From assembly GCA_050309605.1 (NCBI GenBank), contig JBNRMN010000033.1:96001-160000 (forward strand): a stretch of DNA of 64,000 bases, written 5' to 3'. Shown here piece after piece: positions 45,001-48,000 of the stretch (the first letter of the stretch is position 1; every line of letters starts with the position of its first letter). The stretch comes from Anaerohalosphaeraceae bacterium. GTDB lineage: Bacteria > Planctomycetota > Phycisphaerae > Sedimentisphaerales > Anaerohalosphaeraceae. The position numbers were made by a program.

Positions 45001-48000
45001 ATATTTTCGGCATCTTCGGCAGATTGGCCGCGATGGTCATCTCTTCAACGATGTTAAACAGTTGCGGATGGACTTCTTCGGTGACCCGCTGCGCCCGACT
45101 GGAAGCCAGCAGAATCTGATCGCCGCCATACAGACTGACCAGCATCATCACCAGCCAGACGCAGGTGGCAATGAAAATGCCGATCCAGCCGGCATCCGGA
45201 CCGCCCCCGAAGGCGAATCCGAGCATAAACCCCAGTCCGCACAGCACCACCCCCATCAGGCCGAGCAGTATGACCGAATTCCGTTTATTGACGCGAATTT
45301 GTTCCCACATAGTATTAGTTTTAAGTTTTAAGTTTTGAGTTTTGAGTTGTTGTATTGCCTGTTTTTACGATGCTGGTCAACATTTTTATCAATTCTTTGC
45401 GCTCATTAAGCAGAGAGGTTGACTGTTTGTCGGTCAGAATATCACAATCCGTTAATAATCTTATCCAATAATGCGTTTCTCTGGCCTCCTTCGATGCGAT
45501 TGCCATTTTGTAAAAAATTTCTTTTCGACTGTGGCTGGCGGCGGCCTCTTCGACATTCGCGCCGATGCCGGTTCACGAACGGATCAATTGTCCTGAAAGT
45601 TCATAATGCTGTTTGTCTTTTAACCATAAGCTGAGTTTCACAATGCGAACTGCAAAATGATAACTTTTTTCACGCACCGTATGCCCTGCCTGTACAGTCA
45701 TTTATCCGACTCAGCACAAAAACTAAAAACTAAAAACTAAACACTAAAAACTAAAAACTAAAAACTAAGAACTAAAATTTAACCTGCGGCACGCTGCGTT
45801 CCGCTTCGTTTTCAATTTCAAAGTAATCGCGTTTGGTGAAATTGAACATCCCGGCAACCAGATTCGACGGGAACATCTGGATTTTATTGTTATAGAACAG
45901 CACCTGGTCGTTGTAGCCCTGGCGTGCGAAGGCGATTTTGTTTTCGGTACTGGTCAGGGTTTCCTGCAGCGACAGGAAATTCTGATTGGCCTTCAGGTCG
46001 GGATAGTTTTCCACGACCAGCATGAACTTGCTCAGCGCCTCGGTCAGTTGCCCCTCGGCCTTGGAGGCCTCGGCAACGCTGTGCGCCCCCATGGCTTTGC
46101 TGCGGGCCTCGGTGATTTTCTCAAACGTCTCCCGCTCGTGTGTCATATAGCCTTTGGCGGTTTCGACCAGATTGGGGATCAAATCGTGTCGCCGCTTGAG
46201 CTGGACGTCGATCTGCGACCAGGCGTTGTCCACCTGATTGCGCAGCCGGACAAGAGCATTGTAAATACCGATAAACAACACCACCAAAAGAACAAGAACA
46301 ATCAGCGCGGTAATTATGCCTGCCATTTCTTCAGCTCCTGAAAAAGTGAACATTTGGGTTTCGGCTTATGCTTTACAGATGAAAAACGGTGCACTCTGTT
46401 GCACTTGTGTTGCGGAAATTCAGTCTTCCGGCGGGTACATTTCGCGCAACAGATTAGCCACCTTGCCTTCCGGATCAAACGACCCCTGTTCAAGCACGTC
46501 AATCAATTCGCCTCGGTCAAACCACAGGCCGTGTGATTTGGGGCAGCGATCGATCAGCACGGCCTTTTCACCATGTCCGATGAGCACTTTCTGCATCGAT
46601 TTTCGACAGATAGGGCACGGCCGCAGCGTTTCATCGGTATCGGCCGGCTGAAAGGAGCCCAGCAAACGCCGTGTCCGCTCGGCATCTTCCAATAGGATTT
46701 CAAGTTCTCCGGCGTCCAGCCAAATCCCTTGACATTCCGTGCAATAATCCGTTTCGACCTCATCCAGCTCGAAAACGATCATCGGCGTTCGGCAAACAGG
46801 GCACTCCATAGCGGTTATCCTTATAACTAACGTTAATACCCTATCTTAGCGAGGCATTTCGACCTGTCAAGCAAATCCCGCCGCCCGTGCCGAAGAAATT
46901 TTTACAAATTATTCCTTCAAACTATTGACAATTTTTGTCGATTGTGGTATAGAACAAGGATTGTGACAAAGTCGTATCGACGAAACAACGACGCGGCTTT
47001 GGCCTGAGACACGACAATTAAAGAGTGTGGTTTTGGTTCTGCGGTCGGGGCAATTGAACCCGTCCGGATCAGTTTGTTCGCTCGGAGCGAGCAAGCGGGT
47101 CGGTCGGTCAACGCTCATTACCCCGCGGACACTGGAATAACGAAATGTTTATCAGGAATAGGGACAATTTAGTTTCTCCACGACGGATCCGTCTTATCGG
47201 AGACGGGTGTTTTTTGCCTTTCCACTATCCCATTCCCGAACAATTGCTGCGCCCGCTGTGCGGCTTGTGCGGCCTCTTTCCTGTGCGGCGTTCCGCGCCG
47301 CCTGCCTTGCTCAAATCGATTGAACGAATGTGGTATCTATAATGTGAATTATTTTTGAAATTCACCTTTTTTGCGGAGAATAATATGATTAAAAACAAAA
47401 CAACCCCTCAAGACGGCATCGTCTATAAACCCGGAAGCCAGGTGATGGTCGATATGCTTTTGGAGCAAGGCGTCGAAGTGATGTTCGGCTATCTGGGCGG
47501 GGTGGTGCTGCCGTTTTTTGATAAGCTGTATGATGCGCCGATCAAGTTCATCATCCCCCGCCATGAGCAGGGCGGCTGTCATATGGCTGATGCGTATGCC
47601 CGCGCGACGGGCAAGGTCGGCGTGGTGGTGGCCACCTCCGGCCCGGGCGCGACCAATCTGACGACGGGGCTGGCCACGGCGATGATGGACTCGGTGCCCC
47701 TGGTCGCCATCACGGGGCAGGTGCGGACCGACCTGATCGGAAACGACGCCTTTCAGGAGGCCGATACCACCGGCATCACCCGACCGGTGACCAAGCATAA
47801 TGTCATCGTCAAAGATCCCAACGAGCTGGCCCAGGCGATCCGTGAGGCGTTCTATATTGCTCAAACCGGACGTCCGGGGCCGGTTTTAGTGGATGTGCCG
47901 GTCAATATGCAGATTGCGCAATGTCCGATCCCGCCCAAAAGCGAAATTGAACTGCCGGGGTACAAAGTGCGCTATCAGGGACATTCCCGTCAGATCGCCA

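Follow-up and report, generated by a model that had tools for sequence, protein, structure and literature searches.

A four-way-junction leader RNA in front of ilvB in Sedimentisphaerales, a candidate riboswitch for branched-chain amino acid control

What is the long untranslated leader of the acetolactate synthase genes ilvBN doing in the planctomycete order Sedimentisphaerales? The question is raised by a 64,000-nt stretch of an Anaerohalosphaeraceae genome (contig JBNRMN010000033.1, 96,001–160,000; hereafter the window, to which all positions refer), in which a genome-wide survey had noted a structured RNA of about 160 nt upstream of ilvB. On the plus strand, a sigma70-type promoter can be read from the sequence at 46925..46953 (TTGACA at 46925–46930, a 17-nt spacer, TG, and TATAGA at 46948–46953), and transcription of ilvBN is expected to start near 46960. 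The promoter is missing from the scanner list because the scanner demands T at hexamer position 6; a loose promoter pattern, counted without a chance control, occurs upstream in 62 of 67 relatives, mostly 32–52 nt 5' of helix P1 of the RNA. The gene ilvB (47385..49103, +) encodes the biosynthetic acetolactate synthase large subunit (TIGR00118, 841 bits against a cut-off of 538), and ilvN (49211..49705, +) the small subunit (NF008864 and TIGR00119 above cut-off). Upstream of the leader, three proteins are encoded divergently on the minus strand at 44105–46809, namely a 129-aa Cys-rich protein with no NCBIfam match, a 193-aa protein with a sub-cut-off match to MamQ, which we take to be LemA-like, and an HtpX-like protease, below cut-off.

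The leader RNA spans 47003..47156 (+) and, based on alignment, consensus fold and a model score of 115.7 bits, is predicted to fold into a four-way junction of helices P1 to P4. P1, the closing helix, pairs 47003–47007 with 47152–47156; P2 pairs 47010–47013 with 47026–47029 and is variable (7–38 nt, with larger insertions seen by eye); P3 is a rod-like arm at 47030..47138, which length statistics and its presence in family f2 identify as common to all forms in the order; and P4 pairs 47139–47141 with 47147–47149, its loop carrying insertions of 40–50 nt at four loci (L037, L038, L044, L067). The junction linkers are RA (47008–47009) and UA (47150–47151), all on the plus strand. Within the arm, a base helix containing a purine mismatch (G47135) is followed by P3c, an asymmetric loop and P3d, above which lie an internal loop with the conserved A47057 and an upper hairpin (47060–47107) with an apical pentaloop (47082–47086) containing the conserved G47084. 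Between promoter and P1, the minimum free energy (MFE) fold places a further 5' hairpin of variable sequence, P0 (46967..47001, +); P0-like hairpins were recognized by eye in many relatives.

Conservation is distributed unevenly over this fold. We measured it in 68 sequences picked by ilvB and not by the motif, dropping six loci that were cut by contig ends, misaligned by insertions or members of f2. The arm is 105–115 nt long in 66 of the 68, and its segments of 29, 48 and 32 nt have standard deviations of only 1.4, 1.6 and 1.0 (4.7 for P2). Conservation reaches 88% or more at 34 positions; the junction and arm base account for 25 of these, the remainder of the arm for 9. The junction is nearly invariant, whereas the arm sequence is saturated. 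Taken alone, P1, P3a and P4 are weak (mean pair probabilities of 0.22, 0.20 and 0.28), in contrast to the strong upper-arm helices (0.61–0.74), and the modelled fold lies a median of 8.7 kcal/mol above the MFE (64 sequences).

The survey's alignment of this structure stood up to an independent one, and we are highly confident that ilvBN has a structured cis-acting leader. The single window sequence folds with z = -2.03, with 9 of 200 shuffles equally good. We aligned 44 full-length copies with MAFFT; RNAalifold gave P1, P2 and the lower arm, and the upper arm and P4 were added by eye. In the resulting 44-pair structure, scored on the same 44 sequences from which it was drawn, 88.9% of cells are paired and 32 pairs show change on both sides, a result reached by none of 500 shuffles and compared with 32–45% in slid controls. 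Model-fitted alignments, which lean towards the model, gave 91.4% and 93.7% of cells paired. As a stricter covariation control, we ran a home-made tree-aware G-test, in which E fell below 0.05 for 2 of 43 structure pairs and for no pair outside the structure on the 44 sequences; on 127 sequences aligned blind to structure, three pairs exceeded every null value, and the 15 pairs at E<1 comprised 13 nested helix pairs and two off-register neighbours in P2. G-U cells outnumber A-C cells (363 vs 48), which identifies the plus-strand RNA as the conserved strand. Because P1 and P4 are nearly invariant, their pairing is supported by few substitutions. A pseudoknot of the apical loop with the internal loop or P4 appeared suggestive by eye and showed no covariation.

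As the survey had reported, Rfam holds no relevant match for the window leader (E<=10), nor did a scan of 13 other loci at gathering score return anything relevant. Likeness by eye to the consensus features of glycine, TPP, SAM-I, c-di-GMP and lysine riboswitches was rejected for want of Rfam support, as were CsrA-type GGA loops, since the apical loops vary.

We matched ilvB in 94 of 101 order genomes and took leaders from 90 of these 94, leaving out four f2 genomes; the covariance model matches 73 of 76 non-f2 leaders. The three misses are L018, at a contig edge, L032, a truncated form recovered by a sequence profile, and L058, which has no leader. At the latter (G051:C74:25304-26504) the promoter is present, the leader RNA and the normal start are missing, and a stop falls within the first ilvB codons, reflecting either a deletion or an assembly error. 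Under strict filters, the model found no copy in 129 other Phycisphaerae genomes, nor in a phylum sample of 148 genomes outside the order, which partly overlaps the 129. It finds a single copy in this genome, in agreement with the survey, which had placed all 30 of the loci it fetched directly before ilvB. A pattern scan yielded 72 matches in GTDB and at least 119 in metagenomes, 80 of the latter being examined. Of the 152 examined matches, 138 lie before ilvB, and no copy stands before any other gene; the remaining matches divide into 7 genuine copies truncated at a contig end and 7 that arose by chance. Chance matches L165, L173 and L185 score 17–31 bits with the model and 2–9 bits by sequence only, the former because they were picked on the model's own end motifs.

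The survey's note had reported the RNA to be absent from family f2, which our results do not bear out for the arm. Run unfiltered, the model recovers the arm (model positions 28–135) in 11 of 13 f2 leaders; E is below 0.01 for three of these and 0.1–9.6 for the other eight. Both leaders without a match have an insertion in the lower 3' strand. When main-form and f2 arms were aligned with MAFFT, the consensus was limited to the P3c helix. In f2 the junction is replaced by a different closing helix, in which a 5' UGGUU can pair over the AUG in 11 of the 13 leaders. Ten of these 11 also have a rival 5' hairpin that engages the same strand with the arm base and breaks it; this hairpin lies within about 8 kcal/mol in eight leaders, and its outer pair shows an A-U/G-C exchange. 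Five further loci retain the arm and have lost the junction (L032, L041, L046, L049, L064). The arm is therefore the unit that all forms share, and the closing helix is its changeable output.

The computed output is joined to the RNA domain in both forms, with P1 at the Shine-Dalgarno (SD) sequence and the f2 helix over the AUG. In 171 distinct copies that have ilvB downstream, starts were called by script, and in 122 the first ATG falls 6–18 nt past P1. The survey had the closing stem overlapping the ribosome-binding site (RBS) in most relatives; this holds if abutment is included (110 of 122) and fails for overlap proper, the SD purine run continuing the P1 strand in 33 of the 122 direct cases and directly following P1 in 77. 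After removal of 13 rows judged misclassified, 36 copies are uncoupled from an adjacent ilvB start, 12 leading to an in-frame partial copy of the ilvB start, 21 to a short open reading frame (ORF), and 3, including that of this genome, to no ATG. Overall, about one fifth of copies have an RNA-distal start with its own SD.

Partial copies of the ilvB start form a pattern of their own. A copy of about the first 45 ilvB codons, ending just past the G-Y-x-G-G motif, often precedes ilvB (L003, L004, L007, L009, L017, L019, L023, L024, L028, L045, L047, L108, L301, L303, L304, L313, L329 and others), and L038 and L055 have a full-length second ilvB in its place. The second Gly of the motif is Ala or Ser in 26 of 26 first copies and is kept in 26 of 26 last copies and 144 of 145 single genes. 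The duplication recurs in several families and in two or more orders.

In the window, the survey had found the called ilvB start about 220 nt farther downstream, and the sequence bears this out: the adjacent start codon is lost, with a decayed first ribosome site at 47157..47173 (+), where AGT (47171–47173) replaces the ATG of same-genus loci L003 and L004. The ilvB gene at 47385 is instead served by a second SD, GGAG, at 47375..47378 (+). Between them lies P5 (47187..47215, +), a hairpin of nine pairs followed by a U run, terminator-like here and located where relatives have a GC hairpin. A compensatory change and a weaker U run mark P5 in the close relative L130, no terminator was seen in same-genus L002–L004, and a search for P5 as a genomic repeat returned no copy longer than 18 nt. 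The GC hairpin, some 18–40 nt after the first ATG, has a mean z of -1.01 (n = 132, kin not being independent), compared with 0.01 for control genes (n = 150) and +0.20 for second starts (n = 27). The leader RNA is 95% identical to that of L130, against 59% upstream, and both lack the adjacent ATG. This comparison is weakened because one stretch of the spacer equals the RNA in conservation (0.95). That stretch, 47235–47320, is flanked by sequence 83% identical to L130 and contains three copies of the short word TGTGCGGC.

Sister families provide context for what the leader may sense. At 11 of 26 sister-family ilvB loci (L300, L302, L306, L307, L308, L313, L314, L319, L322, L323, L325) we detected short Val-rich leader peptides, ten by script and that of L307 by eye; they span five Phycisphaerae families, and some apparently begin at the transcription start. 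Their position, the same as that of the RNA, suggests that this slot senses branched-chain amino acid (BCAA) supply. Families f12, f17, f10 and f18 have other conserved ilvB leaders without an evident peptide, none matched by the model. Run unfiltered on 18 leaders from f17, f12, f10, f16 and f18, it matched no leader, the sole match being an arm-span (E 5.5) inside a gene. In some lineages, then, the slot counts valine, and elsewhere it holds large folds.

These other folds differ from one another. The f12 leader (L312, L315, L316, L318, L332–L349) is a separate conserved element of about 75 nt with covarying stems and an A/U-rich bulge, by eye like the central loop of the main arm, with no evident leader peptide and no Rfam match in the two loci scanned. 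That of f17 (L299, L301, L303, L304, L327–L329) is a conserved multi-stem leader of about 130 nt whose last 20 nt, lying over the SD, are invariant. A conserved structured leader in f10 (L310, L321, L350–L362) has a possible loop pseudoknot by eye, and further conserved structured leaders occur in f16/f18 (L305, L311, L317).

Comparison across genomes shows the fold, its position and polarity, and a predicted helix over the ribosome site. From these we propose that the RNA, as 5' leader of the ilvBN mRNA, may work as an OFF switch on translation initiation, a candidate riboswitch, which we consider a tenable though tentative reading. Its fixed-length arm, joined to a closing helix at the ribosome site, would bend at the central internal loop, bringing the apical loop to the arm base and junction. 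Because no covariation between apical loop and arm base was found in the 44- and 127-sequence tests, this fold-back would follow from lengths only. The fold would be stabilized by a pathway metabolite, with valine as the leading candidate ahead of isoleucine, leucine or a 2-keto acid; the weak closing helices could then form and block 30S loading, and Rho, which is present, may convert the blocked translation into downstream mRNA loss. This Rho step would explain why the RNA also stands before a short ilvB-start copy or no start codon, as in this genome. Of the separate parts of this proposal, OFF logic at initiation is probable, and direct binding of a small molecule of the pathway, valine first, is conceivable at somewhat short of an even chance.

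The weakness of P1, P3a and P4 beside a strong upper arm is as in a ligand-stabilized switch. Against a metabolite, we count the universal arm with just nine conserved positions, thin for a small-molecule pocket; the junction, replaced in f2 and lost in five loci; and the one gene context, with other folds in f12, f17, f10 and f18. The few compensatory changes in P1 and P4, the height of the modelled fold above the MFE, and the fate of earlier ilvB riboswitch candidates, all of which proved to be uORFs (PMC10272879), also count against it. The survey's proposal of a riboswitch for BCAA control thus stands in part: a cis-acting, peptide-free ilvBN leader is retained, and its link to BCAA is strengthened by the Val-rich peptides of sister families. 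The riboswitch label stays at candidate level, because a leader that binds protein accounts about as well for the single gene context and for the sister folds.

In such a leader, the arm would be a shape-specific docking site whose occupation by protein closes the ribosome site, the simplest candidate being acetohydroxyacid synthase (AHAS) itself (IlvB/IlvN, perhaps valine-bound), or else an aminoacyl-tRNA synthetase. We regard this as possible but rather unlikely. An RNA confined to one operon and to a single copy in this genome, with an arm conserved in shape and length and not in sequence, a dispensable junction, and sister families with four or more further peptide-free folds ahead of ilvB would all be expected of it, clade-specific folds at one gene being the pattern of ribosomal-protein leaders. 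However, IlvN of the order is hardly more basic than elsewhere (net charge +2.8, n = 30, vs +2.2, n = 4, and +1.2, n = 46), the literature matches listed include no paper on autogenous AHAS control, and some 25 near-invariant junction bases exceed the needs of a helix over an RBS.

A leader that senses nothing and acts constitutively, on mRNA stability or processing or by holding initiation at a fixed low rate, is unlikely. It would suit the long irregular rod, the retention of the RNA where the adjacent start is lost, and the distal starts with their own SD in about one fifth of copies, but leaves unexplained the two-state pairing in f2, the invariant junction, and the place of the RNA where Val-sensing attenuators stand.

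Sensing of tRNA in a non-canonical manner, in which the arm would gauge a tRNA as T-box stem I does and an arm-base UGGU would pair with the tRNA 3' end to free the start codon, is very unlikely. T-box stem I is about 100 nt long, close to the arm; the f2 5' UGGU pairs with CCA including the A of the start codon; and AUC, an Ile codon, is the commonest central-loop triplet (24 of 68). That triplet nonetheless varies (AAC 9, ACC 8, AAG 5, and 22 others, AUG among them), the arm-base UGGU occurs in only 29 of 68 main-form sequences and is paired in the model, and no K-turn, S-turn or T-loop motifs were seen in the alignments. A search with RF00230 found no T-box in 41 genomes, with matches in 5 of 14 controls. 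A T-box proper was rejected for lack of an RF00230 match, a conserved UGGN bulge and a specifier codon.

Ribosome-mediated attenuation by a cryptic leader peptide would be the expectation from all earlier ilvB motifs, a strong prior according to the accessible part of PMC10272879, GUG is frequent at the P2 3' strand, and this genome has a terminator-like hairpin. Yet the frame from GUG to UAA is spread over all three frames with internal stops, the best Ile/Leu/Val density among 70 leaders is no higher than in shuffled sequence (3.61 vs 3.74 per 8 codons), and same-genus L002–L004 have no terminator. The survey had likewise seen no leader peptide, and we found no upstream ORF (uORF) that keeps its frame; attenuation is thereby refuted as a general mechanism and extremely improbable in any form. 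Least probable of all is an ON riboswitch of new fold for ppGpp, whose riboswitches do control BCAA genes (PMC7266159, accessible part): the RelA/SpoT synthetase domain PF04607 is confined to 3 of 61 order genomes, this one not among them, a scarcity that agrees with what is available of PMC3153485, no ykkC match was found at E<=10, and folding hides the start, which is opposite in sign to what an alarmone would call for.

For this RNA, then, the uORF, T-box and ppGpp routes can each be excluded. Gene context gives a short ligand list, and more than 100 natural variants in three architectures define minimal constructs; together with the excluded routes, these make a direct test of the candidate riboswitch cheap. 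Our full-text literature search found no riboswitch or aptamer binding Val, Ile or Leu, and we know of none. In a bolder and doubtful extension, the RNA would be the first riboswitch class to bind a BCAA directly, most likely valine, having replaced Val-counting peptides in a lineage that lacks both ppGpp and T-boxes, and the f12, f17, f10 and f18 leaders would be further aptamers or far-diverged relatives for the same signal. If the partner proved to be a protein, this too would be novel, as a case of feedback at the RNA level exerted by or on AHAS. The literature search returned no riboswitch reported for Sedimentisphaerales and no attenuation of an acetolactate synthase leader in Planctomycetes, and the main text of PMC5737381 mentions neither ilvB nor Planctomycetes (its supplement lists 224 motifs and may bear on novelty). 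The ilvB leader RNA is apparently undescribed before, narrow in range, and a candidate riboswitch.

Several known systems resemble it in part. The ilvB-II (Corynebacterium), ilvB-OMG and Leptospira ilvB motifs, as far as covered by the available parts of PMC10272879, PMC8632094 and PMC11109978, likewise always precede ilvB and were first held to be riboswitch candidates, but carry BCAA-rich uORFs, and ilvB-II also a terminator; re-examination assigned all earlier ilvB candidates to uORF or leader-peptide attenuation (PMC10272879, same part). The present RNA belongs to another phylum and differs from them in lacking a conserved uORF and in its four-way junction with a 109-nt arm. From its description in the accessible part of PMC8632094, the Veillonella ilvD motif is also an orphan candidate with long stems before a BCAA gene, set apart by its one genus, little covariation and other gene. 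The ppGpp riboswitch (ykkC subtype 2a) also controls BCAA biosynthesis genes without a leader peptide, but with ON logic, whereas the present RNA has predicted OFF logic, no Rfam match, and a home in an order nearly without ppGpp synthetases. T-boxes (RF00230, and the translational ileS type) are known regulators of ilv operons and also place a long fixed-length rod before a helix able to hide the ribosome site; here the specifier, the conserved UGGN bulge and the stem I motifs are lacking. Autogenous protein-binding leaders, such as ribosomal-protein leaders and the thrS operator, likewise serve one gene in a narrow range with folds that differ between clades, but ilvBN has no known RNA-binding product. 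The amino-acid riboswitches for lysine, glycine and glutamine, together with the four-way-junction riboswitches SAM-I, yybP-ykoY and NiCo, combine a conserved multi-helix junction, a weak P1 by the RBS and variable side helices, as does the ilvB leader RNA, which has no sequence or model match to them and is distinguished by its single long arm and replaceable junction.
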